DNA of 64,000 nucleotides from assembly GCA_035403965.1 (NCBI GenBank), contig DAONGE010000003.1:17860-81859 (forward strand), given 5' to 3'. Of this stretch, positions 2,534 through 52,100 are shown piece by piece; the first letter of the stretch is position 1, and each line of letters starts with the position of its first letter. The translations under genes and the position numbers were made by a program. The notes under the pieces were generated by a model. That model saw only the letters and a list, made by a program, of their open reading frames with translations, had not been told where the DNA came from and ran no database searches. Source of the stretch: Candidatus Omnitrophota bacterium (lineage in GTDB: Bacteria > Omnitrophota > Gorgyraeia > Tantalellales > Tantalellaceae).

Positions 2534-3820
2534 TCAAGTATTTTTTTTGACCTGTTCTATAACAAACTTAAGCGGATCTGCTATTCCCCTTGGGACGATG
2601 AGATCGGGGATGACGCCGTCTGATCCGAGCTTTTCGCCGTTGAAAAGAAAACAGGTCCCTGTGAGGAGTGCCAGCATCGAGCCATCCGGGAAATTATGTG
2701 TGCTTTTAAGGTATGCCATGCCGGCGGTAGGTTCCTGTCCGACTATAACGGCGCGTTTGTACGCCTTAAATGTTCCTGCCATTACTTCGGACGCACTGCC
2801 GCTGCCCCGGTCAATCATGATCATAAGCGGCCCCGTATAGTATGTTTTTGATCCTGCCGTTGTAAGTCCGAAAAGAGGGGTGTTCTTCTTTTGATAGTAG
2901 AAAAGTTTATATTGTGGCGGGATGAACATGGCCGCTAATTCTTTTACGGCGAGTGGTGGCCCACCGGGGTTAGAGCGCAGGTCAATTATCAGCATTTTTG
3001 CCTGGCTCTTATTGATATCGCGTATAAATTCCTCAAGATCCGGGGATGTCATCTGGTTAAATTTAGGAATGCGCAGACAAAATACGCCTGGGGTATTTGT
3101 TTCAGTCTTGAACACGGTTTCTTTAAAATATTCATTAGGTGTTATCTCGTATATTTTTACGGCATTTGATACGGGAGATATGATTTTAAGTTTTACCTTA
3201 GTATTCTCAAGAGGTTGCAGTAGGGAAACCACATCCTCGGGTTTCAGCCCTTTTACGTCCTTGTCATTGATCTCCAGCAGCATGTCGCCTGTGCGTATGC
3301 CTTGTTTAAAAGATTCGGATCTTTTCTCGACGAAGGTTATCGAATATCCTTTTGGGGTCATAGTTCCGGAGATCCCGATATCCATCTTTTTCCCGTATAT
3401 CTCTTTTGAATATTCTTTGGCTATTTTGGGAGGGATGAATGCCGTGAAATGATCTTCAGGGGTTCTTAGCCCTTCTATCATAAGGCCTGCTCCGCGCCAT
3501 GCTATCATCTGGACGAATCCGTCATTCGGGTTTAACTGTGACAGGATGGATCTTTTATACATCTCTATATACTGTTCGTACTTATACCGGTCGACCGGGG
3601 CATAATACTCCTTTTCCATTATGTCATATACCGTGGCTAAAAAATCAAGGTAGGGTTTATAGTATTCAGGATCTTTTTTCTTTGTTAGATCCGGTGATAC
3701 TGAAACGATAATGATAGCCCCGACAAGGGTTACAAGCCCTGCGGTTATCAATTTGTACTTGAAAGGTGCTTTCAGCATTATATCCTCCGTAAAAATACGT
3801 GTTTTGGAACAGTATAGCAT
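2534..3820 (-). CDS. Carboxyl-terminal processing protease (peptidase S41, PDZ-containing, CtpA-like)
   Basis: N-terminal signal/TM anchor. A PDZ-like region 'GDMLLEINDKDVKGL' is present. The S41 core carries 'LIIDLRSNPGGPPLAV' and 'GSGSASEVMAGTFK' (Ser/Lys dyad context). Confidence 0.8.
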   Translation of the reverse strand: MLYCSKTRIFTEDIMLKAPFKYKLITAGLVTLVGAIIIVSVSPDLTKKKDPEYYKPYLDFLATVYDIMEKEYYAPVDRYKYEQYIEMYKRSILSQLNPNDGFVQMIAWRGAGLMIEGLRTPEDHFTAFIPPKIAKEYSKEIYGKKMDIGISGTMTPKGYSITFVEKRSESFKQGIRTGDMLLEINDKDVKGLKPEDVVSLLQPLENTKVKLKIISPVSNAVKIYEITPNEYFKETVFKTETNTPGVFCLRIPKFNQMTSPDLEEFIRDINKSQAKMLIIDLRSNPGGPPLAVKELAAMFIPPQYKLFYYQKKNTPLFGLTTAGSKTYYTGPLMIMIDRGSGSASEVMAGTFKAYKRAVIVGQEPTAGMAYLKSTHNFPDGSMLALLTGTCFLFNGEKLGSDGVIPDLIVPRGIADPLKFVIEQVKKNT

Positions 3821-3853
3821 TACGATAGGGTGGGGACAAGGTTTTTTAAATTT

Positions 3854-6178
3854 TCATTTTCGCGCGGATCTATCCAGTATCACTATGATCAGAGCTAACA
3901 GAGATATTCCTGCTATGGGCAGCGAGGCGGTGTATAGAAATGCTCCAGTTCCGAATATGGCGAAGGACATTACAAAAATTTTTTTATCCCGAAAAAAAGA
4001 TATTATCTGGTTTTGTTCGGTCGGAATAAATCCTATGCATGCGGAGATAGATGTCATTCCGCCGAAAGCCATCAGGATGAGCCCGGCCATTTCGCATGGC
4101 TGGTTTCGGAAGGGTGTGAAAACTAAGGAATTGTTGAGAGACGGGTAAAAAATCCCTAAAGTTATGATAGATATGCCAAAAATAAAAAAAAGTGATGGCA
4201 ATGTCCCGACGTATAAAAGACTTTTTTGCTTGAAGCGTATTTGTGACAATATTTTTGCCAATATAAGCCCAAAAAGGAATAGGATGGCTTCGATCTTGGC
4301 TATTACGGTAGAGTAGGCGGAGGTGTCTTTTTTTGATGTAAACGTATCAATCGAAGAGTTTTGTACCTGAGAAGTTATATCCTGGATTATGCCGAAGATC
4401 CGTTTTTTGATCCTATCCAGACCCAATGTATCGGCCTCCGGGGTTGCCGCGGTTTTTGTATCAGTGATATTTGGCATAAAGAAAGGTAATGCCATGTTTT
4501 CCGAGGCTTCCTTCATTGTAGAAGTATTTTTGTTACGGGTTTCTTTGACCGCCAGTGAGCCGGATTCTATATCTGTGCCATTGTCGTCGGATGTGCTCCC
4601 CTCGTCTAATTCCATACGGTCTATGTGAGGGGAGAACAAGGTCGGTTCGAATATTATCCATCCTTTTTGTGTTCCCAGAAACAAGGTCGCATGCATCTCT
4701 TCGATACTGAGTGTTTTTTCGCCGTTCTTATCCAATGGGAAAAAACCGACCAGCATTACTGGCGAAAGATCGAGGTAAGAAAGATATATGAAAGAATATG
4801 TGGTGAGTATATCACAGTCGCATATGAACGGTTCTCCTGTGCTGATCTTTTCTGATAACATTGAGTTCCATGTTTTTTGGTGTTCCAGATATATGTCGGT
4901 GCCGCCAGCCTGATAGGCAAAAAATTTATTCATTATTGTGGCGACCGCGAATAGCTTGTTGTCCTCGGTGGAATTTTTGTTTTTCCAAAGGATCTCCTGT
5001 ATTTCTGCGGGGATATCGGCGAATTCTTTTTCAAGCCATCCCGTCGGATCATGTTGTATATTTATGAATTTGCCGCAGCCGTTCTTTTTTGAGATTTTAT
5101 ATTCGTACGTTCTGGGAGCTGTATTGGTCAACGCGGACAAAATGCCGTTCGGTGTGATGTCGAAATCCCGGAGAATTGACTCGTCTTGTGATGTTATGCC
5201 GTTAAGGAGAAACGGCAACTGTATGGACTGGTCGGTAGATAAAGAGGGGATCTGCATTTGGATTGATATTGTTTTTGCTCCGCTAAGAGAGATTGGTTGC
5301 GAAGATGAGCCTGTTATGAGAGGTGGGACGAATGAAAGGCTTTCTGAACGCGCAAAACGTCCATCCGTAAGATGGTCGAAAAAAGAATAAACAAAATAAT
5401 CGGTTATTTGGGCGTTTGAGACCTTGGCGATCGCGCCGGATATGCTGATCTCTTCATTCTTTTTGACCGGTGTAGGTGCCGTTAATTTTTCGGATTCCGG
5501 GACAAACACATTGCTGATAGGTTTTATGTCGATTATTGATTCCTGGGCCCGGGATGATCCTTCAACAGTTCCTTTATCTTGCAGCGGAATATTTTTCTTG
5601 TTGTCCTGGAACGGGGATAATAGTGCCGAACCGTCTTCGGACAGATTGGGTTCATCTTTTTCATCGGTCTTTTTGTCTGCACCGGAAGCTCCACTGATCC
5701 CTCCCCCGGAATTTGAACCGCCGGATACCGGGACCGTAGCGGGTCGGGTCGGGCTTTCAGTTAATGCTGATGGAGGAGTTTGGCCGGTGTTCATAAACGG
5801 ATTTTTCTGTCCGGCCGTTATTCCTCCTTTTGCGTCATGTACATTTGTTGTTTTTGGAGGCAGGTTAATAGATTTCCCTATTTCGGCAGGGATGTTTTTT
5901 TTGTGCACGGTAAGGTTGCTTTTTTTGTCGGAATCTTTAGAAGGGTTTGCCGATTTGTACACGATTATTATTGATATCAGAGATACCGTTAATACGACCA
6001 TAACTACCTGTATGATGTCCTGTATTATGATTTTTGGCAGGGGAGGAAGGATGGCTTTGTCAGAGATCTGTTTACGCAGAGATTCTCTTGGACCAAAAAA
6101 ACGTACAGCTAATGGCAGAAAAAGTATAGCCAGAAGTAAGATAATGAGACCCATGAAAAAAAGTAAAATTATGGCCAT
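3854..6178 (-). CDS. Membrane protein with transglutaminase-like cysteine-protease core and low-complexity Ser/Thr/Pro/Gly linker
   Basis: 774 aa. TM helices at the N-terminus and a cluster of about 6 TM helices at the C-terminus. The central region has 'GEPFICDCDILTTYSF' (Cys nucleophile context) and 'HATLFLGTQKGWIIFEPT' (His ... W..xxPT), matching the transglutaminase-like C/H/D(E) arrangement. There are long S/T/P/G-rich stretches. Confidence 0.5.
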   Translation of the reverse strand: MAIILLFFMGLIILLLAILFLPLAVRFFGPRESLRKQISDKAILPPLPKIIIQDIIQVVMVVLTVSLISIIIVYKSANPSKDSDKKSNLTVHKKNIPAEIGKSINLPPKTTNVHDAKGGITAGQKNPFMNTGQTPPSALTESPTRPATVPVSGGSNSGGGISGASGADKKTDEKDEPNLSEDGSALLSPFQDNKKNIPLQDKGTVEGSSRAQESIIDIKPISNVFVPESEKLTAPTPVKKNEEISISGAIAKVSNAQITDYFVYSFFDHLTDGRFARSESLSFVPPLITGSSSQPISLSGAKTISIQMQIPSLSTDQSIQLPFLLNGITSQDESILRDFDITPNGILSALTNTAPRTYEYKISKKNGCGKFINIQHDPTGWLEKEFADIPAEIQEILWKNKNSTEDNKLFAVATIMNKFFAYQAGGTDIYLEHQKTWNSMLSEKISTGEPFICDCDILTTYSFIYLSYLDLSPVMLVGFFPLDKNGEKTLSIEEMHATLFLGTQKGWIIFEPTLFSPHIDRMELDEGSTSDDNGTDIESGSLAVKETRNKNTSTMKEASENMALPFFMPNITDTKTAATPEADTLGLDRIKKRIFGIIQDITSQVQNSSIDTFTSKKDTSAYSTVIAKIEAILFLFGLILAKILSQIRFKQKSLLYVGTLPSLFFIFGISIITLGIFYPSLNNSLVFTPFRNQPCEMAGLILMAFGGMTSISACIGFIPTEQNQIISFFRDKKIFVMSFAIFGTGAFLYTASLPIAGISLLALIIVILDRSARK

Positions 6179-6411: not shown

Positions 6412-7581
6412 ATGAAAAATCCGACGATCGTATTTATATTTATTCTGTGCCTGATTTTGAAGAACACAAGTGCCTTTTCTGATGAACAGGCTGCCTATCA
6501 GTATAATCAAAAAGGTATAGAATGCATGCAAGCCGGCAGATTTGAGGAGGCTATTGAGGCCCTTAAAACGGCGCACCGATATCTTCCGTCGAATGAAACC
6601 GTAAAGAGGAATCTTTGTATCGCCTATAATAATTATGGCTTTTCTCTGATGAAAAAAGGGGACTATTCGTCCGCTATTGAACAATATGAAAATGCCATTT
6701 ATTATGGGGTCGATATCGCTTATACCTATTATAATCTCGGACAGGCGTATTATATGACACAGGATATGTCGAAGGCCAGAGACGCTTTGGAAAAGGCTTA
6801 CAGCTTGAATCCTAAAATAAACGGTTTAAATGAGTTGTTACGCAAGGCCCGAGGCGAGGAAAAAGTCGAGAATCGTCTTGAAACCGTAGAAACAATGCAT
6901 TTTGTCCTAGCTTGTCCGCCGGATACTGATAGAGACGCTATATCGTTTGTTCAGACGCAGATAGAGGAGGCATATGGAAAGATAGCGATGTTCCTTGATC
7001 ATGCGCCGCGAAATAAAACCGTTGTGATCATTTATCCTGAAGAAGCGTACGCGAGATTATTGGGAGGAAGACCTTCCTGGGGGTTGGCTACGTTTGATGG
7101 CAAGGTCAGGATACCCGCCAGGCGCATTAAATATTCCGGAGAAGATGTCCTAAAGATGATATATCATGAATACGCGCACGCGGTAATTTTAGATATGGCT
7201 CGAGGAAGATGCCCTAATTGGTTCAGTGAAGGTGTGGCCAGTAAAGCGGAAGATTTTGGCGCGGCCAAAGACAGGGATGTGATACGTAAGTATATAGAAA
7301 GATACGGTATCATTCCGATCGATGGGTTTCCGGCGGATTTTTCCAGGGTTCGGGATATGAACCGGGCCGTTTTGATGTACATCGAAGCTTATCTGGTAGT
7401 TGATTTTCTTCAGCGGACTTCAGGGAACTCGGGAGTTCGCGATGTCTTGATAAAAGTCGGGCAGGGTATGGGGCTTAAACAGGCGATAGAGTCGGTGACG
7501 GGTGATAGTTTCGCCGGTTTTGAGCAAAAATGGAAGGCCTATGTTATAGACGAATATCGGATCAGTATGGACGGCAGATGA
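6412..7581 (+). CDS. Exported TPR-repeat protein with C-terminal HExxH zinc-peptidase-like domain
   Basis: Signal peptide 'MKNPTIVFIFILCLILKNTSAFS'. Several TPR-like repeats follow (AY.N.G...G.YEEAI). 'MIYHEYAHAVILDM' is an HExxH motif. Confidence 0.6.
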   Translation: MKNPTIVFIFILCLILKNTSAFSDEQAAYQYNQKGIECMQAGRFEEAIEALKTAHRYLPSNETVKRNLCIAYNNYGFSLMKKGDYSSAIEQYENAIYYGVDIAYTYYNLGQAYYMTQDMSKARDALEKAYSLNPKINGLNELLRKARGEEKVENRLETVETMHFVLACPPDTDRDAISFVQTQIEEAYGKIAMFLDHAPRNKTVVIIYPEEAYARLLGGRPSWGLATFDGKVRIPARRIKYSGEDVLKMIYHEYAHAVILDMARGRCPNWFSEGVASKAEDFGAAKDRDVIRKYIERYGIIPIDGFPADFSRVRDMNRAVLMYIEAYLVVDFLQRTSGNSGVRDVLIKVGQGMGLKQAIESVTGDSFAGFEQKWKAYVIDEYRISMDGR

Positions 7582-34115: not shown

Positions 34116-37100
34116 ATGAGAGTAGATATGGGAAGATTAAGCAGGATGATAGACAGCGGGAAGGTGAAAACACTGTTCAAAAAGACGGTGTCTTCTATTG
34201 TGGCGTTTACTTTTCTTGCTACTAGTTTCTATTACGATAATGCCCAGGCTTCAAATATCAGTATGCCAGTCGTAGCGGTCGACAGTAACCCGGTAAATTC
34301 TTCAACAAATAATATACAGAGAATCCTTGATCCCAAAACATTTACTTTGCCGGAGAACTTGGGAAAGGTTGTCGATTCATGGGCAGTGAAAGATGCCCTT
34401 AAGAACGGCGACGCGAAACTTGTTATCTACATTCAGGACGCGCATTGTAACTACGGCGCGCAGAATTCCATTTCCGAGATCATCGATCTGCTCAATAAAG
34501 AATATTCCGTGAACATGGTCAATCTTGAAGGAGGAACAGGCGATTATGATCTTTCGGTTTTTACGGATATCAAGGATAAGGCGATCCGCGCCAAGGTAGC
34601 GGATTATTTTGAGAAAGAGGGGATACTGAGCGGCGCGGAATCGTTCGCCGCAAATAATCCCGAAAAGGTATCGCTCTGGGGGCTGGAAAACACCGAACTT
34701 TATATCAAAAATCTAAATGTCTATCGCGATTCGCTTACATATAAAAACGAGGCTGAAGGCTATATAAAAGCGATAAGTCGCGATCTTTCTGCGCTGAAAA
34801 CGAAGATTTACTCGCCGGAATTGCTGTCTCTGGATATGAAATACACGGCGTATAAAGCGGGGAATGCGGATCTAAAGACATATCTTCTTGGGTTAACTGA
34901 GACGGCTAAGAATGAGGGTATAAACCTTAAGTCCTATCCGAATATTTTCTTTATGATCCAGACTCTGGCTCTTGAGAACACTATCAATTTCAAAAGGGCC
35001 GAGACCGAACGAAGTATCCTGGTGGATGAATTGAGCAAAAAACTGCCGAAAAGCAGGATGGAAGACCTCGCCGCTAAAACTATTGAGTTCAGGTCAGGAA
35101 AAGTGTCGCAAAGGTATTTTTATGCGTATCTGCTGGACGAAGCGAAGATGATAAATCTTGAGATCGACACCTTCGGCGAACTCAAGAAATATATGCTTTA
35201 TATCGAGATCTTCGATGCCGTGGATAAGTCGAGAATCATGGATGAGATGGAAGGACTTGAGAACGCGGTGCGTGCAAGTATCTACACGAACGATGATGAA
35301 CGCTCTCTTAATACGCTTTCAAAGAACCTTATCCTTCTTAAGAATATGTTCAATATCTCGTTCACCCGGAGCGATCACAAATATTACAAGGACAACGCCA
35401 AGGGTTTCGCCGCGGAAGGGTTCATCTCGTTCATAAAAACGGAATCCCCGAAGTACGGGATAACCCCGTCGGCGGACGAAAAAGCCCTCGCGCTCGATAA
35501 ATTCCGCGAAGAGATATCCTGTTTTTATGAATATTCGTTCGCGAGGGACGAGGTGTTCATAAAAAACATAAAGATGAACGCTACTCCCTCCGCTAATGCT
35601 AAATGCGCGGTTATGGTAAGCGGCGGTTTCCATTCCGAGAACATGTATGAACTTTTCCGGAAGAACAATATATCGTACATATCGATAATGCCTAATTTTA
35701 AGAATTGCGACGGGTATGAATGCCCGTATTTCGATCTCTTGGGCGGTAAATACGGTAAGGTGCTGAACGCCCTTTCCGGTAGTGCGACATCGAATTTGGC
35801 GTTGTTTAGTTTCTTCTGTAAAGATGCATCGACGGTGGTCAACGGGGAGATGACGGAGGCTGGGGTTAAGACATGGTCGGTTCTTGTAAGGGCTATGTTT
35901 GAGTCCGATCTTTCAAAGGGACCGGTCGAGGTCAAAGGTGAAGGGGATAATGTTGGATACGTTATCGGTGGAGAGCCTGACCCTAATAACGAAAGCATTA
36001 CTCTCGATATGGACGGGAGACGAGTTCTGGTTCAGCGCGTAAAAACAGCCGAAAATATTTTATCTGCAACCGTCGCTGGAGATGTGGGAGCGAATGCTAA
36101 AAATGTTGGTATGAAGTCTGTCGCAACCCCGGATGATACGGAATTTTTATCATATTCTAAAATGACGCCAGAGGAATTGGATCGTGTCGAATCGGATCTT
36201 GTACAGAAAGTGCGTGGGTTATGTATGCGTCATGCCGGGCTGGCAGCTAGCGCATCCGATATTGACAATATTGCGGATATCTGTCGTAGCGTTTTATGGC
36301 TTGATGTTTATTTGACAGACAGGAAAGAGGTCGAGCGGGAGTTTTTAGAATCGTTTGATCTCATTACCCAGATATTTCATGGGAATCAGATATTAGAGCT
36401 TTTGGTGTCAGTGCTTCGTTTTGCCGATGAAGCGGAAAGAGGCAACGAGGATGCGGTGGAATTTGTGAAGAGTGTGGCAAAATTACAAGCGATCAACGAT
36501 GTTCCCAGTCAGGATGGCCGTTCGCAGACATTGCCATATTGTAAAAGTCGGAAGCCATATCTGGACATGGCGAGCGGACCGAATATTATATATTTCACAG
36601 CAGATATAAAGCAAAATGCCCAGGTTGAACACTATCTGGTGGATACTTCCTTGTTCGCGAATACATATCTCAAAATGGTCATGGCATTGAGAAATATTCA
36701 TAACGTAGAAGTGAAACAAGAAGATGTGCTGAATTTAAATTTCAAAGAGGGGAGTTTGGGCGCAGTTCGTCTGAAAAATTTATATACATATGTGCGAGAA
36801 CAGGTTTTAAAACAAATTGTCCAAAAATATGGCGAGGTGGATCTTGACTTCCACCTAAAAGAATATTGGGATGAATATTGGGATCGGGTGGCGGCTTGGC
36901 TTGAACCGGCGGCTATGGTCGATGGACATGTCCAAATCCGTGGACAGATATTTGTGCAGTCCGATTTGTCGGTGGGGCACCGGGCTAACATGGCTGAGAT
37001 CGTGCATGATATGTACGATGTGCTGGTTTCCCAAAAAGGCTGGGCGTTTGATTTTAAACTGGGGATTGATAAAGGTGGTTTTAGATATGATGTGCTTGAT

Positions 37101-40100
37101 ACAGTAATATTCACAAAACCGCCGGTTGGAGGCAGATTGGATTCTCCGCATACGTTTGAGGATTTCTTAGCGGCGATAGAAAGTGATAACGTACATTTTG
37201 AGACGGATTCGGATGAGATCCAGTCTTTCTTGGCGAATTCTTTCGGTAATATTTTTGGTAAAAAGTACGCATGGCTCGATAACGGATTAAGGATGTTATT
37301 GTTGGCCGCGACGCCGGTACATGAATTAGGCCATATTCTTGCGGCAAAATTATCCGGGCTAAGTGCGAAATGGACATTTAAAAATCTTTTTACCGGCAGT
37401 GTCGAGATAGGAAGGGCTCCGCCGAAGGTTCTCTTTGCGGGTTTGGTATCAAATCTTGTTGGTGCAGTGCTTTCCGCATCGATTTTCGCCGCGTTAAAAA
37501 TATGTTCAGACCAGCCGATTCTGTCCGTAACCGGTATTATTCTTTGCTATACCGCGGTTACAAACTTCGCGTCGTTTTTAGCGGAACTTATAGCTCTTCC
37601 GTTCGGGAAGGGGGATTTGGCCCGGGCAACAAAAAGCCCGAATGTTGAAAATATTTCGGTGCAATCTTTGACAAAATCTTATGTGGACGAGCATGGCGAA
37701 CAGCTTGCTCATGAAAGAGCGCAAAGAATGAAGGGAATGATGGGGATATACGCCGCTATGGCGATATCCGCCATCGGGGCTGTGATAACATCCTTATTGG
37801 CCTATTTTGGTTTAGATATCGTTTCACCCGCGCAATTCGCGTCTTTGATGGTGCTTTCTTTTACCGCGGTGCCGGCGGGAATGAATGTGCTTTCTCATGC
37901 CGCGTACAACCTGCTGACTTTGTCGCTCCGATCAAAAGGGGCCATGCGCGCGCTCGGAGAACAAGGTGATACGAAGCCGCTTGTTGAGTCTGTGGCCGCG
38001 CGGTATGCCATGAAACATATGGGTTCATACGAATCTACGATCGATGAGGTCGATATTTTAAAATTGCGGCATAACGAAATTTGGAACATACCCGACATAG
38101 ATATCGATGCTAAGACAGGATTACCGCGTAGTTTTGAAAGTGATGTTTGGAAGTTGGCTAAAAAGATCCCGGGTATTAAGTATGCCAAGGTTGTAAGGGC
38201 GGACCTCGGCGGTATCCCGAGCTATCATTTTGTCAGAGGGCAGACCCTGATAATAGTTCTTGATTCGGGGATAGACAGCGATCTTGTGAACGAAGCTGTG
38301 TACCATGAATTAAGAGAAACCTTCTGGCTTACACAAAAAGATCTTATGTATGAATTGTCACAAACGTCTGGTTTCCCGCCGGAACGCATAGCCCATATAA
38401 TCGCTTCCGCTGAACAGGTCACGAGGTTCGGGAAGGATGGGAATCTGACCCCATATCACGCCCGTGAGATCGCGCGTATGGATAGAAAGGCGCTTTCGGG
38501 GCTTATTGATGAAAGAACCACGGGCGGAAGGGAAAACCATATTTTTATACTTGATGAAGTGGCTAAACGTTATCCGGATGTAAAAATAGATCTTAATTAT
38601 GAGGATCTGGTAATAAGGCAAGCTGAAGCCGAATTAGGACTTGGTGAGCCGATTTTCAGGATCAAGGCCGAGAACGCGGAAGTGGCGACGGACGAGATAG
38701 ATCTGGCAGGGTTAGTGGCTTATCTGCATACCAGGGATGGGGAAAATGTGAATACCGTAGCCGGTAGCATAAAAGCCAACGATTTAGCGTCCAAAGTCAA
38801 CGGGATGTCGGGGCCCCAGTACGATAACTTTATGTCCAAGATCAGAAAAGTGAGGGAACATCAGTTCAGCGGTGCGAATCGGCCTATAGTCGAGATTATC
38901 GCTAACGCGATAGATTCTTATGTTGAAGATGACAGAAGAGCATCTGGGAGTGTCGCGGTAAATGTGGATGATAGAGGTTTTGAGGTGATCGATCAGGGTA
39001 AAGGGATGAGTCTTGACCAGGTGCTTTTGTATCTGCTCATCCCCTCATGGTCTTCCAAAAGGGGTGAAGGGGAGCTTGATATCGGTCGTTTTGGCGTGGG
39101 ATTTTATTCCGTGCTTAATTATTTGAAACATGAAGGAGATAAACTGGTCGTTGAGACTTCGAACGGCCAAGAAGGCACGAGAATAGTGTTTTATATCGCA
39201 GAGGGAGACGGTAAACAGCTGGTAAAAGTACGTTTTGAAAGCATCCCTACCACGCCGAAAGGCACGGCGGTCAGATTGATCCTTCCCGGGAAGAATTTTA
39301 GATCCATGGAACATTCCAACGTGATTGAACAATATCTAAGGTTTAATGGTAACGCACCTATATATGTCAACGGCAAACCTATCAATGCCGGGATAATGGG
39401 TGAACACGAAGGGTATAAAGTCGTTGATGTCGGCAAGAACGATCTGAGCTATTCTGAAAAAAGAGCGTCAAAAGGGAAGGCGTATATCCTGGTCAATGGC
39501 GTGACTATATTTGACGTGGATCTTGTGTGCAGTAATTCCCCGGAGACGATATTGATAAATTTCCCCAAAGACGCCAAACTCACAAAAAGCAGGGATCGCG
39601 TTATCTGCGGGGCTAATGAACGTGAATTTATTAAAGAGATGTTGTCCGTGCTTTCCAAGGATGCGAAGAACATTGATATTTTAAATGCGCTATATCCTGT
39701 GATAAGGGAACTTCAGCGCAACAACAATGATCGCGGGGATAACCTTGAACATTTTTATATAAATACAATAAAAGGCCTTGTTACATCATCGCATATTAGG
39801 GTTCTGCCGGATGTGCCATACATGGGGCAGGTAAGGTTGCAAGAGCGATATGTATTGATCCGACCGGAGTTGTTTAGACAACTCAAGAATTATAGGCCAA
39901 TTTTGCAGGAGTTCAACGGACATTCGGGTGGTTATCAGGTGTTTGTAGCGGAGTTTATGTCGGATGACATTGTTTTTGTGCACGATAATATGGTTGTCAT
40001 CCTTAACAGTAAGTATATCCCACACAACGTTGAAGAAGTGGCTGCTTTGGAGATGTTAATGGGTTTTGATGACGTCAATATCCAGTTTACGGGCGCAGAT

Positions 40101-43100
40101 GTTAAAGGCGGATCTAATTCTAAGATAATTGGTGAGAATATTGGTTCTGAAAAAAACACGTCGATGCTTAATAATATGAAAAAATGGGCGGGGAATTTTC
40201 CGGGTATAGTTAGTTTCCCTCTTGTGATATTAATGAAAGTAGTCGAGGGAATAGGTTTATTCATATCAAAGATACCTTACCTCGATGTTTTTATGCCGAG
40301 GACGGCCAATATAGGGCCGTACAAAGGGCGAGATTACACTTTCTTCCGTCACATGCTTAGCAGTGTGGAAAGCCGAATCCTTCCTAATGATGATATGTCA
40401 AAAGACCCTGCATATGTTAAAGCCTTAGAGGAGCGTATTAAGAAAGATGTTTTGGGTAAGGGGAAAAAGCGGGTAGATCTGTGGAAAGATTTCCTTAAAC
40501 GTTATAATATTGAGAGTTTCGATTTTGCCAAAACAGTCGAGAACATATTGGACTTAACAAGGAAAAGATCCGAGAGTATGCGGGAAGGGAAGTCCCGTGT
40601 GGGAGAGTCAGGGGAGCATCAATTGGGCTCTGAAGAATATAAGGGTATGGATAAGTTGATGGATGATCCTGTTTTTATGGCGGATGTTGTAGCGTTAGAA
40701 TTTATTAATAAGATCAGCATGAATCTGTTGGCATTCTTTTCCAGTGACAAAGAAATGAGAAATTGTTTTGACCAGATGGTCAAAGGCCTGAGGGCGGTTG
40801 GTATGGGTTACGGAGAATGTCTGGCTCTATTTGAAGGCATTGTAAAAAATTCAAGTAGGAACCAGCGAATGAATAGCCACGACGTGTTGGTCAGGATGAA
40901 GGGGATTGTGAGCTGTATCGATCGGTTGAAAAATGTGAATTTTGCCGACGGCGAAGAGATGGAAACCTTCCTTTCAAAACTTGCAACTCGAAGATGGTTG
41001 GCCCGTATAACTTATCCTAAATTCGACCGCAATAGCCATACATACTTGGTTTTTGATGCCAAAAATTCTTCACCCATGACATGGGATCTGAGTAATTTCT
41101 ATAGCGGGAATGATCTCGATGACATTGATTCGCCGTCTGGATCATATCGCGAATCTTTGGTTAGAGGGATCTTACTGTTGACGGAGATCCTCGCCGGAGA
41201 TAAGTTTGATCAGCGTTATAAGGATAAGTATTTTGACATTCTTGGTAAGAAGTTTCTGTCGGCAGAACGCGGAGAAATCGCCCCTGGAGAGTTGGCCCAA
41301 TTTGTCATGTATTTCTCAGGTATTGTATCCGTGGAGGAAAATAAGGATGAGCGTTTTCTGGATGTTTTAGAAAAAGAACTTACAAAATTGATCCGTTTAT
41401 GTAAAAACACGATTGATAGTGATGGTAGAAGTCAGTATCCTCGCGTATCTGATATCGCTGTCAAAGGGCATTCGCTGGATATAGTAAGCACTTTCACGGA
41501 CGCCGGTGACGCGAAGTATCTATTTGATTATCTGCAGGTGTTCTCTGATACTGTAAGGTTTAAGGATGTCGATGTGTCACTACGACTGAGCCTGTGGAAG
41601 ACGATAATGGCGAGGCATATTGGTAGATCTGAAGGCTTTCAAGAATGGTCTTATACCTATAGCAGTACCGACAAGGAAGGAGAAATAAGAATTTGGAAAA
41701 CTGCGCAAGACGAGTACGAGTACATTGTGAACGTATTATGCAAATTAACGGATCATGGCGTCACATCGTCAAAAGACGTACATCGTATCGCCAGGCCATA
41801 TGTGTTTTGTCTCGATTCAGGTACGGACATCCTGAAAAAAGATGTCAGCCCTGATTCCGCCAGGATCGGAGGAGAGCTGAACACACCTTATTCATTAAAG
41901 TTATCAACGCTGGTGGCTTTATATCTCGGCGGCGCGATGAAAGATAAAAACGCCATGGAAAAAGATAAAACCGCCATGGAACTTTTGGACATGGCCCGTT
42001 CCGGGGCCGATACCGCCGGTTTGATCACGGAGGTCAGCCGCGAAACGGCCAAAAATTCGATAATAGAAAGTATAAACTATGAAAGTTCTGACGAATATAT
42101 TTTTATACGCGAGATAATACAGAACGTGCTTGACGCTAAGGGCAAGGAGCTCGACGTGTCCGCTATCAACGGACGCGATTGGTGCCAACTGGGCTTTACG
42201 GATAATGTCGGGATGAGCATTGAACGCGTAGTTAAATTTTTGCTTATTCCGGACAGTACGACGAAATTAGAGGATAAAGAGGCCAGGGGCAAATTTGGAC
42301 AGGGATTTTTTACCGTTCTTAAAGATGCGCGGATGGTGCGTGTTAAAACATCCGATGGCACGGGAAAGCTTGTTATTGTCCAGATGACGCCGGTGCGTAA
42401 AGGCGAGTTGATCGTGGATGTGGATATTTCCGTGGAGATCAAGGACGACGCTTCCTTTAAAGGAACAAACATAGAATGGTTGAGAGATTCCGATATCCCT
42501 CAGCTCGAGACGGCTATAGTGAGATCAAAATTGTTGACATATGGTTGTTTGATCGATGATGCGGAACTTAAGATAAACTGGACAGTGAATAACACGACGG
42601 CGGTGATCAATAAAAACAAGGAGCTGATGGGCCAAATTGAAACCGAATATGGGAAAGTGGGGCTTTATCATTCAGGGGACAAAGAGAACGTTGTGACGCA
42701 TAGGGGGTTGTATGTAAGGGAGATCGACAAATATTTTTGGGATACCATACCGGTGCATATAAGGGAACAATTGTCCGACTATGGGATTATAATAGACCTT
42801 CCGGCCGGGGTTGAACTTATAAGCGACAGGTCAGATGTGACCAATAAAGAAGAAATATTGTCAAAATTACAACCTCATTTGGCCAAACTCAGTATTATCG
42901 CCATTCTTGATCTTTTCGCCAGCAATAAAGTCAAGCTTGGTTTTATGCCATATGATTTTATGAAGGATGGCAGGAACTGGATCATCCCCAATAGTGTGAA
43001 AGATGACGCGGCCGCCCTGAAAAATGGGCAACAGATAAATGTAGCCCCATATGTGGCCAGCGGCACGCTTTTTGGACAGCTTATAGCATCGATCCCATTT

Positions 43101-46100
43101 ATATCGCTTAAAGGGAAAGATGAGCATTTCTCTCTTGTGTATGTTTTAGAAGGTATAGAGAACGGTTCGATATTCTTGGATGACATAGTGAACGAGAATA
43201 TCGTCGAATGTATAACCACTGTAATGAAAAGAAAAGCACAGTCACGCCGGCAGGCCGAAGAAAGGAGAGAAAAAGGATATAAAGAATTCTATGATATTAC
43301 GCTTCCAATCGAAGGAAGACGTGACGATGCGGATGTATATTGGGCTTTTTCAGAGTTTATGAAAGAAGTATCAGTGATGTTAATCGCTGGTCAAAGAGAG
43401 AATTTGGGATCGGCCGAGGTTATGTTCTATGGATCTGTAGGGAATGATAAGGCACATGCTTTCCAGAACAGTTCCGCGATGGGGTGGAATATCTATTCCA
43501 ATATGGAGTTATTTGATCAATTCTCAAAATATCTGCGTGATGAGATACCTCCGGACCAGGCGATATACACGATAAGAGATATGTTCAGTACGCAGCTTCA
43601 TGAGCTTGCCCATATGCTAGAAAATACCGGGGAGACCACTCATAATGATGAATTCTTTGCCAGGCAAAAAGCCCTGACAAAGTCTTTTCTCATGAGTATA
43701 GGGGAGATCAGTAAAATAGCCGAGAAGATCAAACATGAATATAAAGGTACGGTTATAGATGTAAAATCATTCGCCAATTATTTGTTGGAATATAGAGACA
43801 AGGGTGTTTCACCTGTTACGTTGCGTGATTTCCCCGCAAAGGATATACGATCGCCTAAACAGATGTCTGTGCTAACATTGACAAAGACCTACGCGCAAGA
43901 TCATGCCGAAGAGTTGCTAAAGCTCCACCATCTGATCGAAGGGCAAAAGTGGACAACAGATCAGTTGCTTGCCGATATGTGGAAGCAGGGAGAATATGGA
44001 TCGTCGAAGGATAGACCTTTTGCCGGTAAATGGGAGCATAGCTTTGTAGCCACATCCGCCGATGGCAAACCCATTGGAGTCCTGATCGCGTACGAAAGAC
44101 CTGCTAATGAAATGCAGGGTGTGGATGGCGCGGCCTTGTATGTTCATGCGATAGCCGTGGACCCGATGTATCAAGGTAGCGGTGTCGGAAAGCGCCTCAT
44201 GCTCGAGTTGGCGGAGCAATTGAAATTAAGGGGGCTACAGTATCTTACTGCCTCACGCGGAGAAACGCGTATAGCGCTTCAAACAGGCGATGATAATCTC
44301 GCTGCGCAGAAATTCTATTTTAACTTGGGTTTTGAAGAAGTAGGGAGAAAGTATTATCCCGCGTCCGGAGATGGTGAGGCACATTCGGATCTTGTCCTTA
44401 GCGCTTCTTGCGAAGATGTTATAAAAAATATCATAGGGGCCCCGGCGTCGGTCGCTGTAAACAATATGGATGCATTTAAGCTGACCCATCCATGGAAAGA
44501 TTTTCCTGATCAAAACGGTCGGTATATCGCGGATATGATAGCGGATCATTTGAGCGATAGGGTATATATCGCGCGGCAAATACAGGCTTTGTTCCCAGGC
44601 GTAGCTATAAGGCCGGCCGATCTTGTAAGTGTATCTGTCGAGCCCGGCAGCCACCGGTCGGGTTCGTATAAAGATTACAACATCGTGAATGTAACGGCAG
44701 GTGATAAACAATACCGGTTCGGTATTCTGGCGGGTGTTCTATTTAAGAACGAATATTCTGAGAAAAAACTATTTGCGGATAATGGTATAGGTCCGCGTGT
44801 GGGGGATATGGGTGACAATGAGATCTTCAAACGGTTGAATAAACTTGAAGTCGGGATGGTGGCGGTGCAGCATGTGGAAGGCGAGACTGTAAGTGAACTG
44901 ATAGATAGGGGTGATTGGAAAGAAGCATCAGATATTTATGCGGAAATATTGCGTAAATTCAACACGATCGGATTCTTTGGATTGGATATTTTTAATAACG
45001 GCGATAACGTTATTAAGGGAAATGACGGGAACCTTTATATCATAGATCACTGTGTGTCTGAGGATAAAACCGACAATTTGAAATATCCGTTACATGTCTT
45101 ATTTGCGCTGATGTTGCAAGCTAATTCGCGAGGTGAGACGGAAGTGCTCGATACATTAGACCATGAAAAGATCGACGAGATCGTACAGATGTGGTACCGG
45201 GATTTTTATATGGATAAACCGGACTCTGAGATAGAAGATGAAATTGATAAGATTTTATTAGCAGCGGGAGATTTTTCTTATTTAGCCCAAAACCCCAGAG
45301 ATGTTATAAAAACCGGAATACTGGGATATTTAGCCGAAAGTCTTAAAAAGACAGCTTTCACTGATACTAAAGGCTATGAAGCAGGGTTCGCTCCGTTGAA
45401 AGATGCACGTTTTATTGCCGGATCTTTGGCTATGGGCGTGGTTTTTGCGGCTACTAGTCTTTTATCCGGCAGTTTAGGGGTGGGTATAGCCTTTGGGATT
45501 GCCGCGGCGGCGATAAGCGTATCTTCGATCAGTTATTTTACGCGTTCTGAATCCGGAGTAAGATCTTCTGGCAATGAGGGGATGTCCAGACGCGAATGGC
45601 TTACGGCCGCGGGGATCGGCATTATTAGTTTGTCGCCAGTAATAGCCGAAACGGTAAATTCGTTCATTAAACAAAATAACGCAGGTATGGAGATGCCGGA
45701 CATTGTTATGTCAGACGAACAGATAAGGGATCTTGTCGCGACCCTGAAAGGCATGGGATTTGAGATCGATGCGGAAATGGTGCGGAGTTCTATTAGAAAT
45801 TCCAACAAAGAAAAAAATAAAACAATGGTAAAAGAGATCTATGAAGGCATGCGCGCGGATGCAAATATTCCATGGAATAGGGACGATGTTTATCCGGTGC
45901 TTTTTGTCGACGGTTTAAAAGAAGAAGGGTTCGCTATGGCTATTACAGACATACCGTTGATAATAGTCCCGGCGGAAAACATTCCTAAAGACAAAAAACA
46001 AAGAGAAGCCTGGCTTGGAGAAAAGATCGCGCATGAAGGGACGCATATAGCTAATCGAGAGCTGGTCGAACTTGGCGCCATGACTCGATTGGAAGACGAA

Positions 46101-49100
46101 GCGGCGGCGTATAGAGTGACAGCCGCGGCGGTTGAAAAATATGAGCCATTGAATAAGGAAGGGATAATTACGCAGCGCATGGTAAGCAGCGCGTTCGATG
46201 TGATCATCAGCCCCTCAGGTCAGGCTAAACTGAAAGAACTGGTGAATATCCCGTTCGATCGTATGTATTACGATAATATTAAGATCCTCGGGAATTATGT
46301 GGGGATACGTATTTATCAAGATGCGCCGGAAGGGTCTAAAGTAAAAAAGGTCGTATGGGTTGATGTTTCAGAAGGAGAAATAAAAGGTATCGATCTTGAT
46401 CTGAAGATGGAATTATCCTCGGCCGGGAAGGGGCTTACTTCTGTAGTGCTCGCCGCTTCTCTGCTTCCCGGATCAAACCGGGAACAGGCGGATAGGATCA
46501 GCCTTAATGTGTATAAGCTCATTTTGAAACGGGGACTGGAAAAACACGTTGGGGCGTTAAGGCGTGAAGGAGTCATAGATAAAGGTTTGTTGGATGTATT
46601 TGAGCGGGCGTTGAACGATATGTTCGACAAAGACCTTAAGGATAAAGATGTGGTCACATGGCATGATTATACGCATGCGGCGAATATGGCGCTACGGGCC
46701 ATGGAAGCAATGGAAAACGTGCTTAAAGAAAATCCGGGGATGTCCGCTAACGCGCTTTTGTTAACGGCCATAGCCGCGATGTACCATGACGTGGGATATT
46801 ATTCGGCTGATCCGTTCTCGGGCGCCAGAAAGTTTGGGCATGAGGACAGAAGTATGGCATATGTCAGGGATCATGAGAGAGATCTTGGGATCTTATCGCG
46901 TGACGCGGCGCGGATCAATCTGATGATATCGGCTACAAAAGTGGAAATGGGCAGCGTTTTTAGGGATCTTGATCCTTTGGTGAATAAGATCTCAAGTGGA
47001 AAAGCCTCCGCTGATGAGATAGCTCGGGTAAAGACATTATTGGGGCAGAACGGTTTTTCTGTTGATACATTGGGATTGGACCTCTCGGATCACAGGGACG
47101 TTGAATATTTGTTGGCGCTAATTTATGGCGGCGAAATACTGGCAACCCTTGACGTATATGATACAAGGCCGGACGTCGCCGAAAGGATAGATGATCTCCA
47201 TAACGAATTTAATTTTGATCGTGACACCATTAATCAGAAATTGGCGGATGAAAAAGATAGTAACGTTAGAGCAAAATTGGAGATGTTGGTCAGTACTCTT
47301 GAAATGTCAAAAGATCATCTCGACGCGATAGGGAAAACACGTGAATTTTATAAAAAATATGCCGACGATAGGGTCGCCGGTTTTGGCGTATGGGGAAAGT
47401 ATATAAAGGGTGAGATAATCGATGATTTTGACGCCAAACGAGCCGGTATATATGCGATAGGTGAGGCCGCGGCTAATCCTGATCTTGCTAGTTCAGCGCA
47501 ATATGCCGATAGACATTTATCAAGAGCCGATCTGGAATTTATATCACGATTTTCCGTGATGGTCGAGCTGGAACGTAAAGGGATGCCGAATTTTGGATCT
47601 TTGAGAGATATTATCCCGCGCGCACCGCCGATATTGTCTCTGGAAACGATTATTGACGTGTTTAACGGGATTTGGAACGCGTATATTTATGCGAATGTGC
47701 CCAGTGATGAACTTGCCGCGGTGGGACGTTTTAAAGCAGATACGATACGGCATTCCATCCTTACGGCGGAACTTATCGGATTGGTTATCCGGCGAATGGA
47801 AAAAGACGGTCAGGTCTTTAGTGATCAAGACGTACGGGATATCATGATAGCCGCTATATTCCATGATATCGGCAAATATATTACGGCGCGTGAAATGGCA
47901 TCCAACAGGATCTTTGCGAAAGAAGAACGTCCCGCTATTGTTCATAAACATGTGGATATCTTGCATGGGAACCCTGATAAAGGGGATTATAAAAAGTTTC
48001 GGGATGTGTTGGCTTCTTATGGTATATCCATAAGGGGCAGCAGCATAACTGCTATTCAGGGCATGATGGGCGAGCATTATGTCACAGCTATGCCAGGCCA
48101 GAATGAGCGTCATCGTACCGTGGAAATGGGATATCTCTTGTATATGTGCGACGATCTTTTAGGCAGGTTTGACGGCGCCAGGGAGCATAAAAAACCGTTA
48201 GAGGGTTTTTCCTCGGTAGTGAATATGGCATATGACCGTGTCCAGAAAGTGAAAACCGATGCTGAACTATCCCGGGATAAATTCTATATCGCCTGCACTA
48301 ACGCGCTTTCTGAAATAATGCCTGCCGATATGATGGAAGCGGACGACGTCGATAAAAAAACATTCACTGGACTTCTTTATGAAAATGCGTTCCTGTCTTT
48401 TAGGCCATTGGTGACGTCCTCAAGCTGGGCGGGCATAGCTAACGATAAAGTGGCGCAGGCTAGGGTAAAGCAAGGTTTAGAGAGAAAAATAATCACGATG
48501 TACGCAGAGCATGATCCAAGTACGAGCAAAAGTATAATTGGATATAAAGGGGAAAAATACCTTTTAGAAGTTATCAGAGAAGTGCTGGAATTAGATGTAT
48601 TTGCCCCGGATAGAAACTATGTGGTTAGTGGGTTAAACGAGGAATTCAGGATACCCGGGATACGGGCAAAGGATATAGCGCGATCGATATTCGCCTTGGC
48701 TGATGGATCAGATGCGGCCGCCAAGGAATTTGTCAGGGCGGTGGCCGAATTAGCGGCGTTAAATGAGATAGATTTCGTGAAAGAATTTAAACAGAAGCTG
48801 CCGAAAGACGATAGTGATAAACCTTATTTGGATCTTGCTTCAGGGCCTAATATAGCATATTTTTCGAATGATCTGGGGGCTTCGCGAAAATATTATTTTG
48901 TCGATAGATCTTATTATGTGAGCACATTCCTTGAACGGATGATGGAACTGACTGGACATAATAATGTCGAGATCATGCAGAAGGACATATTAGATCTTGA
49001 TTTCGGTGATGAAAGCTTAGGTACGGTCAGGGTTAAGAATCTGCTTTTGTACGCTAAAGTTCCCGACACGTATTGGGATAAAGCCGCGAAATGGATAACT

Positions 49101-52100
49101 CCCGGCGGGCAATTGACCGTTCAGGCCGATCCAACATTTAAAGGAAGAAAAGATTGTGCGGAGATGGTACGGGTGTTGTATGAAAAACTTGTTGTTAAAG
49201 ACGGGTGGTCGTTTAATGTTATTTTAGGCGTGGAAGCGCAGCAACCATTTGATTCCACTTTAGATACGGTTACTTTTGTTAAACCGAAGTCCGGACAGAG
49301 GTTAACTTCAAATAAAAATTTGGATGAATATCTCGCTTCTACAGGGCAGAAAATAGCCGTTAAAAAAGTAGAAGAACCGGCTAAGCCGATAACTCCCGCA
49401 TCACGGGAAGAAGCGTATTGGCACGGATCGATGGTTTCTTTTGATAAGTTCGATGAAAACCGGATAGGTTTTGGTACCGGGGCCAATCAGGAGGGGTGGG
49501 GTTTTTCAGTAACCCCAGGCAAAGAAAACGCGAAGGAATATGCCTCCGGTGCCGCGGGTAAATTACAGCCGGGGCAGAAACCCATATCCATTAAAATTAA
49601 AATAAATGGCCAGGAAGTGAATAGTTTTGCGGGGCATGAGAAATATTACGCGAAAAGGCTTTTTAATATTATCAGTGCAGGCGGAACGGTGGAAGACGCG
49701 CGGGAAGCATTGCTGTCGGAGGTCCGTGAAGCCGGAGATGCGGAAATGGAAAAGTTTATTGCGAATGCGGATATCACCGTAAATATAGAAAGATATTTAT
49801 ACAGGATCGATGTCGGCGAAGATCCTGTTTGGCTGGAGCTGAATGGAAAGCCTGATAAGTCCGTATGGACTATGATACAGGCGCAGGCTTCAAAAGAAGG
49901 GGTATCTTTCGGGAAGTATTTTAATATCGTTGATGGCGAGCCGCAAGTTAACATGGGCAGGGAAATATATGCCGCGCTTATCAATATCCTTGGTTCGGAT
50001 AAAGAGGCGTCTTTGTTTCTGGATAGATCCGGTATCACCGGGAACAAGTCCGGACATTTTTATACGGTTTTTCCGTCAAGGATCAAGATGCGGGAACGAA
50101 TAGATATGAACGAAAATATCAAAAAGGGTGGAGCTATAGTCCCCGAGGCGGAAGCTGGAAAAGGTGCTGAAAAGAGGATGACGAAAGAAGAACTGCGTGA
50201 AAGGGTTAACAGGATACAAGAAGAAATATCTACGGTAGGATCGTTCCCGTCTGTTAAGGAGGCGATAAAACGTGTTTCGGAGATCATCCGGTCGGTACAC
50301 GCAAAAGACGCGAAAAGGCCGGTCATTGTCGTTCTTGACGGGCCGCATATCGGCAAATCTACCACGGCGGACGCTATTATGGGTAAAAATACGGTGTTAG
50401 GCGAGAATTTCGCGGCTGAGACAAATATGGATTCACGTGAAATTTATTTTATCAGGGGAGACTATTTCCATGAATTTTATGCGAGTAGCAATACGCAGGG
50501 ATACGATTATCTGAATAGACTGGATGAACTGCCGGAGAAAGAAAAGAACCGTTATCTGCATCTTCAAAATTTGAAAACTGACAAAGCGGATGCACAAAAG
50601 GGTAAAATAGTGCTGAAAAACGCGATGAAAGATTATGGCTCGTATTTACAATATTTTGTTAATACGTATCTTTCAAAAATATTGGCAGAGTCCGGAAAAC
50701 GTGTGGTTCTTTGGGACGAAGCCGGAGGTGAGGGGTATTTCACAGGTGGCGCTATTTCGCAAGGGGACGTGGATAATCCGGTTGCGATGATATTTGTTAC
50801 ACTTCAGCAGCCTTTGGGGAGCGGCTCGGTAGGAGCGACTGTAAAAACATGGGATTGGGGCGATGTCAAACCGATCTCCGCGGCCCCAGCGGCGGAGGCG
50901 GGGAAAGGGACCATACCCGCAAAAACCGAAATAATTACTGCCCTAATATCAAAACGGACAGGCAGTATAGTGGACATAATGGCAGGTGTAAAAGAAGATG
51001 TTTTGGATAAGTATTCCGGAATACATCATGTGCCAGTCTCTGAATTGGACACGATAGAAATAAACGTTCCGGATGGTGTGTATCATGGCGTGCATGCGTC
51101 TTCGATTATAAGCGCCCATGCGACGGACAAATATACAAAAGGAAAAGAGGGATTAAAAGTTCTGGTCATCGGAACAGGGATGGGACTTGAAGCTTATATC
51201 GCGGCAAAGAACGGCGCGACCGTGACAGCGGTCGATATTAACAAAGACGCCGTGAAATGCACCAGAGATCTTTGCGATAGGTTGGGTGTGGGAGAAAGAG
51301 TCACCTGCATGGTCAGTGATCTTTTCAGCGCGCTTGGGAATAATACGTATGATCTTATTGTGTTCAATATGCCACATCCGAAACTGGGGGATGATAATCG
51401 TATCACGAAAGATGGGGATATAAATGTTGTTGATGTGGGTGAAAGACTTTTAAATGTCACTGCGTCCGAGGTGGACAAATATTTGAACTCGCAAGGGATA
51501 GCCGTACTTGTTGATTCAGAGCAGACACGAATAGAGAAAATATTCGCTCAAAATCCGAATGTGAACGTTACACACGATTTTTTTGATGTTGAAGGGCCGT
51601 CAGTGGCATATATACTTACGAAGAAAGATATGGCCCCTGCGCCGGGGATTGGTGGATATTCGGTGGATGGAAGAGAAATGTTGTGGAATGTTGATAACGC
51701 CATGCATGTGCCGTGGAAAGAAACCGTGCGAGATGTTGTCCAAGAGCCCGAGTCAAAAACAAAAACCCTGAATCAGAAAAATTATCTTAATAATCAGCTC
51801 GAGGTGAGGAAGATGTTTCTTGATCTCTTAGGGCGCATGAAATCTGCGGAAAAAATTGATTTTGCCGCGGAACTAAAGAAATTGCACGATGTACTATTAT
51901 TGGGCAGAAACGGGGATTCGCCATATATTCCAGAGCTTCAAACCGATGATGATATGGTTATTGCAGACGAAACCGGAAATGTTCAAAAAAAGAGAATATC
52001 GAAATTGCAGGAATATGGTACGGAGTATACCGATTGGGGCAGGGGAAGAGCAAGTACTGATGGGCCAATACACAACGCGTTGCGGGAATTTCTGAATTTG

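Follow-up and report, generated by a model that had tools for sequence, protein, structure and literature searches.

The 64,000-nucleotide stretch analysed here, referred to as the window (positions 17,860 to 81,859, forward strand, of contig DAONGE010000003.1, Candidatus Omnitrophota bacterium, assembly GCA_035403965.1), contains a single and uninterrupted open reading frame (ORF) encoding a giant protein of 6,993 residues. A signal-like segment and a conserved N-terminal domain are followed by a long body, in which ATPase, acetyltransferase, phosphohydrolase and methyltransferase domains are found together with three modules, designated m1, m2 and m3, that each contain one HExxH motif (Table 1). 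Each motif is the signature of a zinc site, the metallopeptidase-like modules that carry them are unrelated to one another and have been shuffled independently, and we are highly confident that all three are genuine zincin-type modules.

A first-pass annotation, made from the letters of the window and its reading frames, had reported three HExxH motifs in the giant protein. There are exactly three, at residues 1069, 3162 and 3973, the earlier nucleotide coordinates being 3 nt too low. It had also put the number expected by chance at about 0.2; the expectation is indeed low, but the exact figure does not stand, as 0.13 motifs are expected when the frequencies of H and E in this protein are used. 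The Poisson probability of finding at least three motifs is 3.4e-4 and, after residue shuffling, one out of 3,000 shuffles reached three (mean 0.129). No HxxEH, HExxxH or HxExH variant is present in the protein, and three of its five HxxxH strings are HExxH. The 24 other proteins of the window that were checked (12,009 aa) contain a single HExxH, the HEYAH of a TPR- and Peptidase_MA_2-containing protein (6412-7581, + strand).

The giant protein has many relatives. With its residues 91-1290 as the query, an exhaustive HMMER search retrieved 7,503 proteins at E<=1e-3 and 2,388 at E<=1e-30. The top 150 relatives, which span 630 to 7,683 aa and total 372,943 aa, match the query within the N-terminal ~470 residues only, at 41-54% identity, and what is conserved in the family is therefore the N-terminal domain, the body behind it being modular and variable. 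An alignment scan of GTDB species genomes confirmed 373 relatives of this domain, frequently as several paralogues per genome; the best 78 of these 373 loci all lie in metagenome-assembled genomes of the Omnitrophota type, with up to 53% identity, and 19 of them were deposited as 'uncultured Planctomycetia'. Within their first 110 residues, 131 of 151 family members have a hydrophobic helix that resembles a signal and in many cases ends in 'AWA', and the domain itself is recognised by the invariant motifs QDAH.N..AQ, N.EG, GAE, NP, WG.E and GGFH. It has no Pfam match at E<=10 (giant protein and seven relatives), no NCBIfam relative and no PDB profile match, and the TraB/Tiki likeness that had been proposed for it appears unsupported. 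Close orthologues were not found in a word-indexed protein database queried with m1, m2 and the m1 alignment, and a single query of 3,101 aa matched nothing when genomes and metagenomes were scanned.

Copies of the three modules were collected by comparing the giant protein with its 150 relatives by BLAST, and further ones came from the 78 loci found in genomes and from a scan of metagenomes. They lie at widely differing positions in their respective proteins (e.g., residues 1016, 1438, 2140 and 4761), and the motif is retained in 9/9 copies of m1, 3/3 copies of m2 and 7/7 copies of m3. A lack of conservation in homologues, which the first-pass annotation had named among the observations that would refute self-processing, cannot thus be held against it, because HExxH is kept in every module copy found. 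At the level of the whole family, the 150 relatives contain 115 HExxH motifs when 7.4 are expected, while permuted patterns (HxExH, HxxEH, EHxxH, HxxHE, HDxxH) occur 3-15 times each. In the genome-locus ORFs of at least 1,000 aa, 46 HExxH motifs were counted against 3.1 expected. The motif is found in 2 of the 26 members shorter than 1,000 aa and in 23 of the 24 members of at least 4,000 aa, with a density of about one module per 2,400 residues of protein body; none is located in the first 620 residues of any family member, the N-terminal domain being free of HExxH. Once the three motifs of the giant protein are included, clustering by sequence divides the 118 motifs into 60 groups, of which 22 have two or more members, and two other modules of the family score above the Pfam gathering threshold, one as Peptidase_M48 (29.9 bits) and one as Peptidase_M50 (32 bits). 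Zincin-type modules are a regular and diverse component of this family.

It could still be argued that the three motifs are chance strings in a very long protein, as short motifs do accumulate in long proteins and as the giant protein is rich in E (7.2%). This explanation is hardly credible: composition makes three motifs a rare event, whether calculated or simulated by shuffling, every homologous module found keeps its motif for all three types, and the excess across the family is 15-fold with flat permuted controls. A chance origin is thus refuted by composition statistics, module conservation and family-wide excess.

The region of the first motif had been likened to site-2 proteases (S2P), a likeness that is borne out by both structure prediction and profile comparison. 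The AlphaFold2 (AF2) model of m1, built from 7 sequences (pLDDT 73, pTM 0.66), predicts an HExxH-bearing helix (model residues 28-42), within which HELGH would lie, a short strand region after it, and two long helices (66-93 and 101-126). When the model was compared with the PDB by Foldseek, the top match was SpoIVFB (E 0.14, prob 0.94) and the highest TMq, 0.50, was to mjS2P; when the m1 profile was compared with the PDB, the best match was mjS2P (3b4r, E 0.001), followed by SpoIVFB (0.015). Hydropathy peaks at residues 1105-1123 and 1141-1159, and the 'LPFGKGDL' segment, at residues 1161-1168, comes after two strongly hydrophobic helices, the Asp of its GKGD being invariant. In 9/9 copies, H1069, E1070, H1073, G1094, G1109, N1150, E1157, G1166 and D1167 are invariant. 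The profile alignment with mjS2P matches N1150 and E1157 to 'LLNLMLGGFNLI', in the helix leading into the zinc-binding Asp, and ends before D1167; a manual placement puts this residue 2 positions beyond its S2P counterpart.

m1 shares with S2P (mjS2P 3b4r, SpoIVFB 8vjl, RseP; MEROPS M50) a HELGH motif in a hydrophobic helix, the same HELGH being present in the aligned mjS2P, and a short strand region followed by two long helices; the invariant Asp at the end of its last helix would, as placed by hand, lie near the third zinc ligand of S2P. It differs from them in being a unit of 130-140 aa within a giant protein, devoid of PDZ or CBS domains, and in scoring below the Pfam gathering threshold (M50, 16.8 bits for a cut-off of 27.2): M50 was matched by 7/9 copies and M50B by 6/9, all below threshold, with a best E of 1.7e-4. 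It also has no NxxP, the NxxPxxxxDG of S2P being replaced by N-x6-E-x8/9-G-D. m1 is read as a divergent, minimal S2P-like core, with HExxH in the first helix and the invariant N...E...GD at the end of the third, and as a candidate member of M50. The further helices at residues 1205-1262, which the first-pass annotation had counted as a part of the domain, are not conserved in the m1 homologues. Single-sequence searches of the PDB with m1, m2 or m3 gave no useful match.

The second motif belongs to a different kind of module. The pattern HELxHxxE-x6-H-N-D-x-F-x2-RQK is present in 3/3 copies of m2, with H3176 as a candidate third zinc ligand. In families of the WLM/SprT type, HExxH is followed about 10 residues on by His-x-x-x-Phe, and the HExxH...H...F pattern of m2 presumably fits these families (Wss1, Spartan, SprT; PF08325, PF10263), its conserved His-x-x-x-Phe lying ~10 residues after HExxH. 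Of the Pfam families, WLM gave the best match to each of the two copies that were scanned (18.9 bits for a cut-off of 26, E 0.0017) and a SprT-like match was obtained in one of these two copies (E 0.057); a profile search against the PDB retrieved nothing relevant. As judged from these sequence features, m2 is a putative minimal zincin of the WLM/SprT-like, HExxH...H type, which differs from the known families by its sub-threshold scores and by its fusion behind a sacsin-like GHKL ATPase. In the three proteins that contain it (the giant protein, L079 and L080), m2 is always the tail of a ~560-aa unit that opens with this ATPase, and such a joint inheritance hints at an ATP-coupled protease arrangement. 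No DNA-binding part was recognised in m2, and the module gave no match in a viral-contig scan or by tblastn against plasmids.

In the third module, the copies share 21-37% identity and the only columns that are invariant in 7/7 copies are H3973, E3974, H3977, N3980 and E3995. In the AF2 model of m3 (5 sequences; pLDDT 81, pTM 0.81), three predicted strands (model residues 107-110, 120-122 and 127-131) precede the predicted HExxH helix (139-158), and the invariant Glu would be located on the following helix (170-188). This agrees with the zincin core, which has been described as containing a three-stranded sheet before the active-site helix (PMC5512222). No significant fold match and no PDB profile match were obtained for m3; the top two viral matches of the Foldseek search are annotated as Peptidase M48 (E about 0.01, the best 0.008), the TMt to the minigluzincin abylysin (4jiu) is 0.49, and Pfam M48 was matched by 1/7 copies (E 0.13). 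m3 resembles the M48 and minigluzincin proteins (HtpX/Ste24 type; abylysin) by HExxH and a Glu on the next helix in an ExxA[YF] context, and by a predicted core made of a three-stranded sheet and two helices. It differs from them by the location of this Glu, just 18 residues past the second His, and by additional helices on its N-terminal side, a beta-sheet part on its C-terminal side and a leader of the twin-arginine translocation (Tat) type. The model thus places m3 as a gluzincin-like domain outside any described family.

This leader, which is located inside the giant ORFs and directly upstream of m3, follows the pattern M-S-R-R-x-[FWL]-L-[KT] and is continued by a hydrophobic stretch. It reads 'MSRREWLTAAGIG' in the giant protein, and 'MSRRDFLK', 'SRRQLLK' and 'QRRQFIK' in relatives. 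Among the 150 relatives (372,943 residues), the pattern is matched three times, and an m3 module follows directly in all three cases (P0046, residue 4730; P0075, residue 2009; P0080, residue 1736). The leader looks like the captured N-terminus of a protein that once stood alone and was exported by the Tat pathway and, because such a leader precedes it, m3 is probably extracytoplasmic. A twin-arginine signal is not known to work other than at a free N-terminus. A start of translation inside the ORF was considered and not adopted: the ATG at 45582 follows a GAGGGG with almost no spacing, which makes a poor ribosome-binding site.

The conservation of the modules also bears on whether they are peptidases at all, as they could derive from zincins without being proteases: they might bind zinc in a structural role, be hydrolases of another kind, or be what is left, in inactive form, of genes captured earlier. 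Every peptidase-family match of the three modules lies under the curated threshold, there is no significant fold match, and the Tat-like leader suggests that m3 was taken whole from a standalone gene, which would suit this explanation. However, catalytic residues are what a relic would be the first to lose, and metal binding by itself does not require the general-base Glu, whereas the invariance of m3 is limited to the catalytic set H, E, H, N, E, and that of m1 includes HExxH plus N, E and GD. Moreover, the same family holds M48 and M50 domains that reach the Pfam threshold. A non-proteolytic nature of the modules is thus considered unlikely, and we infer that they are active zinc peptidases.

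The other features of the giant ORF are listed with the modules in Table 1.

Table 1. Features of the giant ORF (positions in the window; aa, residues of the giant protein)
Feature	Position	Strand	Basis or remark
Giant ORF, single and uninterrupted, 6,993 aa	34116..55097	+	contains all the features below
Sec-type signal or signal-anchor at the N-terminus (basic stretch, hydrophobic helix, 'NAQA|S')	34116..34253	+	read from sequence
N-terminal domain defining the family, aa 95-560	34398..35795	+	alignment and HMMER matches
Internal duplicate, copy 1, aa 719-1020	36270..37175	+	36% identity to aa 4816-5075
Module m1, aa 1038-1178	37227..37649	+	homologue alignment, AF2, profile search
HELGH, motif 1, aa 1069-1073	37320..37334	+	sequence
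Two further hydrophobic helices, aa 1205-1262	37728..37901	+	hydropathy
Sacsin-like GHKL ATPase domain 1, aa 1582-1753	38859..39374	+	Pfam/NCBIfam
Supermodule: sacsin-like GHKL ATPase 2 and zincin-like tail, aa 2664-3223	42105..43784	+	sequence comparison
Module m2, aa 3075-3230	43338..43805	+	homologue alignment, Pfam
HELAH, motif 2, aa 3162-3166	43599..43613	+	sequence
GNAT acetyltransferase domain, aa 3299-3410	44010..44345	+	Pfam/NCBIfam
Hydrophobic helix pair 5' of m3, aa 3766-3805	45411..45530	+	hydropathy
Twin-arginine-signal-like leader of m3, aa 3823-3847, MSRREWLTAAGIGIISLSPVIAETV	45582..45656	+	sequence pattern
Module m3, catalytic part, aa 3862-4085	45699..46370	+	homologue alignment, AF2
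HEGTH, motif 3, aa 3973-3977	46032..46046	+	sequence
HD phosphohydrolase domain, aa 4544-4602	47745..47921	+	Pfam/NCBIfam
Internal duplicate, copy 2, aa 4816-5075	48561..49340	+	match to copy 1
Weak ART-PolyVal-like region, aa 5102-5217	49419..49766	+	sub-threshold Pfam match
HemK/PrmC-like S-adenosylmethionine (SAM) methyltransferase domain, aa 5643-5812	51042..51551	+	Pfam/NCBIfam
Second SAM methyltransferase domain, aa 6146-6257	52551..52886	+	Pfam/NCBIfam
C-terminal domain, aa 6700-6993	54213..55094	+	common to 23/150 family members examined

The ART-PolyVal-like region, which scores 18.2 bits for a cut-off of 31.2 (E 0.004), carries a 'YWHGS...F..F...GWGFSVT' pattern and has no phage relative by tblastn. 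The internal duplicate, unrecognised by Pfam, contains a 'KPYLDxASGPNI' motif and looks methyltransferase-like by eye. No Pfam relative was found for the C-terminal domain, and a single-sequence search of the PDB with it gave no useful match; its distribution suggests that these ~300 residues are a second conserved end-domain of the family. A 'P[EA]AEAGKG / PAAEAD' string is repeated at apparent domain junctions (residues 5342-5349, 5590-5597 and 6679-6684, at about nt 50139, 50883 and 54150). This linker was considered as a cleavage site and then dropped, as it is private to the giant protein and absent from other family members.

Hydropathy places the hydrophobic helices of the protein at residues 1105-1259, 2025-2049 and 3766-3847. 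Enzymes that depend on ATP, SAM or acetyl-CoA follow the signal peptide and flank predicted membrane helices on either side, and no simple in/out topology keeps every one of them in the cytoplasm. The same puzzle has been remarked for Omnitrophota giants in a 2026 preprint (10.64898/2026.06.07.730766).

The genes on both flanks of the giant ORF are ordinary chromosomal housekeeping genes, and nothing on either flank marks a phage or a plasmid. HydEFG, glutamine synthetase III (GS-III), NAD synthase, GOGAT, CarAB and PyrG are encoded on the 5' side, and a DUF748 protein, a hydrolase, a GGDEF response regulator, an epimerase, QueH and a PP-loop (TilS-like) protein on the 3' side. Synteny with other Omnitrophota loci was not retained, as merely two neighbours are loosely shared. 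Elsewhere in the window, a homologue of STT3-type oligosaccharyltransferases (829 aa; 10-2499, - strand) lies near a 774-aa protein without Pfam match (3854-6178, - strand), an S41 peptidase gene being located between them.

Giant proteins that join unrelated enzymes have been described under the name of polyvalent proteins in phages, plasmids and conjugative elements, where domains of ART, kinase, GNAT and methyltransferase type are fused (PMC5512222). Interspersed in them are one to five zincin-like HExxH(+Glu) peptidase domains per protein, which have been proposed to set the other domains free and which belong to diverse clades that are mostly unrelated to classical families (PMC5512222). 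The giant protein is like them in combining GNAT, methyltransferase, HD and weak ART-PolyVal domains with three interspersed zincin-like modules. It differs by its location among chromosomal housekeeping genes instead of a mobile element, by its signal peptide, family-specific N-terminal domain and many membrane helices, and by one of its peptidase modules (m1) being intramembrane. Phage, plasmid or viral-contig relatives were not found for the parts tested (m2 and the ART-like region), and no ArdC-N, virion or conjugation domain was detected in the protein.

Another setting is provided by the giant proteins of Omnitrophota ('Archaeovorins' and related), which are likewise multi-pass membrane proteins from the same inferred phylum, and at the small end of which the giant protein stands with its 6,993 aa. 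Its methyltransferase, HATPase, GNAT and HD domains match the 'Module 1' described for them (10.64898/2026.06.07.730766). Whether these giants are cleaved after translation is an open question, the idea of cleavage resting on C39 and S8 domains (10.1101/2023.11.21.568195); in this respect the giant protein differs, as neither Pfam nor NCBIfam gives a C39 or S8 peptidase match in it. Text searches of three reports gave no mention of HExxH motifs or metalloproteases and no description of a family sharing the N-terminal domain (10.1101/2023.11.21.568195; PMC10066038; 10.64898/2026.06.07.730766). The architecture of the giant protein works like that of polyvalent proteins but lacks their mobile-element context, and it fits the class of Omnitrophota giants. 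MARTX toxins and viral polyproteins are also large precursors, from which effector or enzyme domains are set free by a protease within the same chain; these proteases are cysteine or serine proteases, not zincins, and no part of these systems is known to be homologous to the giant protein. A release of fused enzymes, as considered below, would match both the polyvalent proposal and, by a different class of protease, the processing of MARTX toxins.

What the modules cut is less certain than what they are. One possibility, which we put forward tentatively, is that their role is to cut the giant protein itself or its paralogues. m3, exposed outside the membrane, would trim loops on that side, m1, intramembrane, would cut membrane helices, and m2, cytosolic and coupled to an ATPase, would cut linkers. 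By acting together, they would set the enzymes of the fusion (methyltransferases, GNAT, HD, ATPases, ART-like) free from one another. Self-processing is favoured because an S2P-like module acts on membrane helices, the nearest of which are in the same polypeptide, because the frequency of HExxH modules rises with protein length, and because the twin-arginine-type leader of m3 would need a free N-terminus. It is also favoured because there is published precedent for the idea (PMC5512222; 10.1101/2023.11.21.568195). Taken as a whole, i.e., three zincin modules that include a self- or paralogue-processing role, this reading is somewhat less likely than not.

The modules could alternatively be active zinc peptidases whose substrates are other proteins, such as those of a prey or host surface or of the envelope, the giant protein itself staying intact as a membrane-anchored multi-enzyme platform. 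Omnitrophota giants have been discussed as predation or attachment factors (PMC10066038; 10.1101/2023.11.21.568195), and the signal peptide of the family and the export-type leader of m3 would suit an extracytoplasmic effector. Zincin-like domains have been viewed as possible effectors, and several of their carriers are transferred full-length (PMC5512222); a cleavage-site motif was, in addition, not found. However, an S2P-like module such as m1 acts within its own bilayer, where the nearest helices are those of the giant protein, m2 is fused to an ATPase amid enzymes of cytosolic type, and the occurrence of HExxH in 23 of the 24 longest members scales with length, as if the modules serviced the polypeptide that carries them. 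Cleavage of other proteins is the main rival account of the modules, and only slightly less likely than self-processing.

Several observations nevertheless weigh against the self-processing reading. Self-cleavage, plausible as it is, is reached by inference, as none can be observed by computation, and no conserved cleavage-site or junction motif was found. All three modules are under the curated Pfam thresholds and none has a Foldseek match at E<0.001, m2 being moreover known from just three copies. At the level of the family, HExxH is absent from 84 of the 150 members, most of them short or truncated, and the m1 and m3 types occur together only in the giant protein and in L016. The presence of cofactor-dependent enzymes on both sides of the predicted membrane helices leaves no simple topology that would fix the side on which each peptidase lies. 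The leader of m3 may just be left over from the capture of a gene, or may be a signal-anchor of the ordinary kind. Finally, among the polyvalent proteins, several that bear zincins are transferred at full length (PMC5512222).

The results provide a marker, the conserved N-terminal domain, by which the whole family can be collected. To the question of whether such giants act as one chain or as pieces, they add candidate enzymes, in the form of diverse HExxH modules that are present in nearly all long members and include intramembrane, S2P-like ones. As exact residues are now named for mutation, the idea of a self-cutting giant protein becomes testable, even though it is still unproven. The results also draw a conceptual link between chromosomal giants and the polyvalent proteins that mobile elements encode. 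A more far-reaching view, which we regard as improbable, is that the Omnitrophota-wide, signal-peptide-bearing giants (over 7,500) are the chromosomal counterpart of polyvalent proteins and have a built-in dismantling system, in which the extracytoplasmic gluzincin, the intramembrane S2P-like module and the cytosolic, ATPase-coupled zincin would cut the chain that carries them in the manner of site-1 and site-2 proteases, and cleavage would expose internal twin-arginine leaders and lead to the export of pieces. If this were true, export signals that are internal and activated by cleavage would represent an undescribed route by which many enzymes are made and sorted from one gene.

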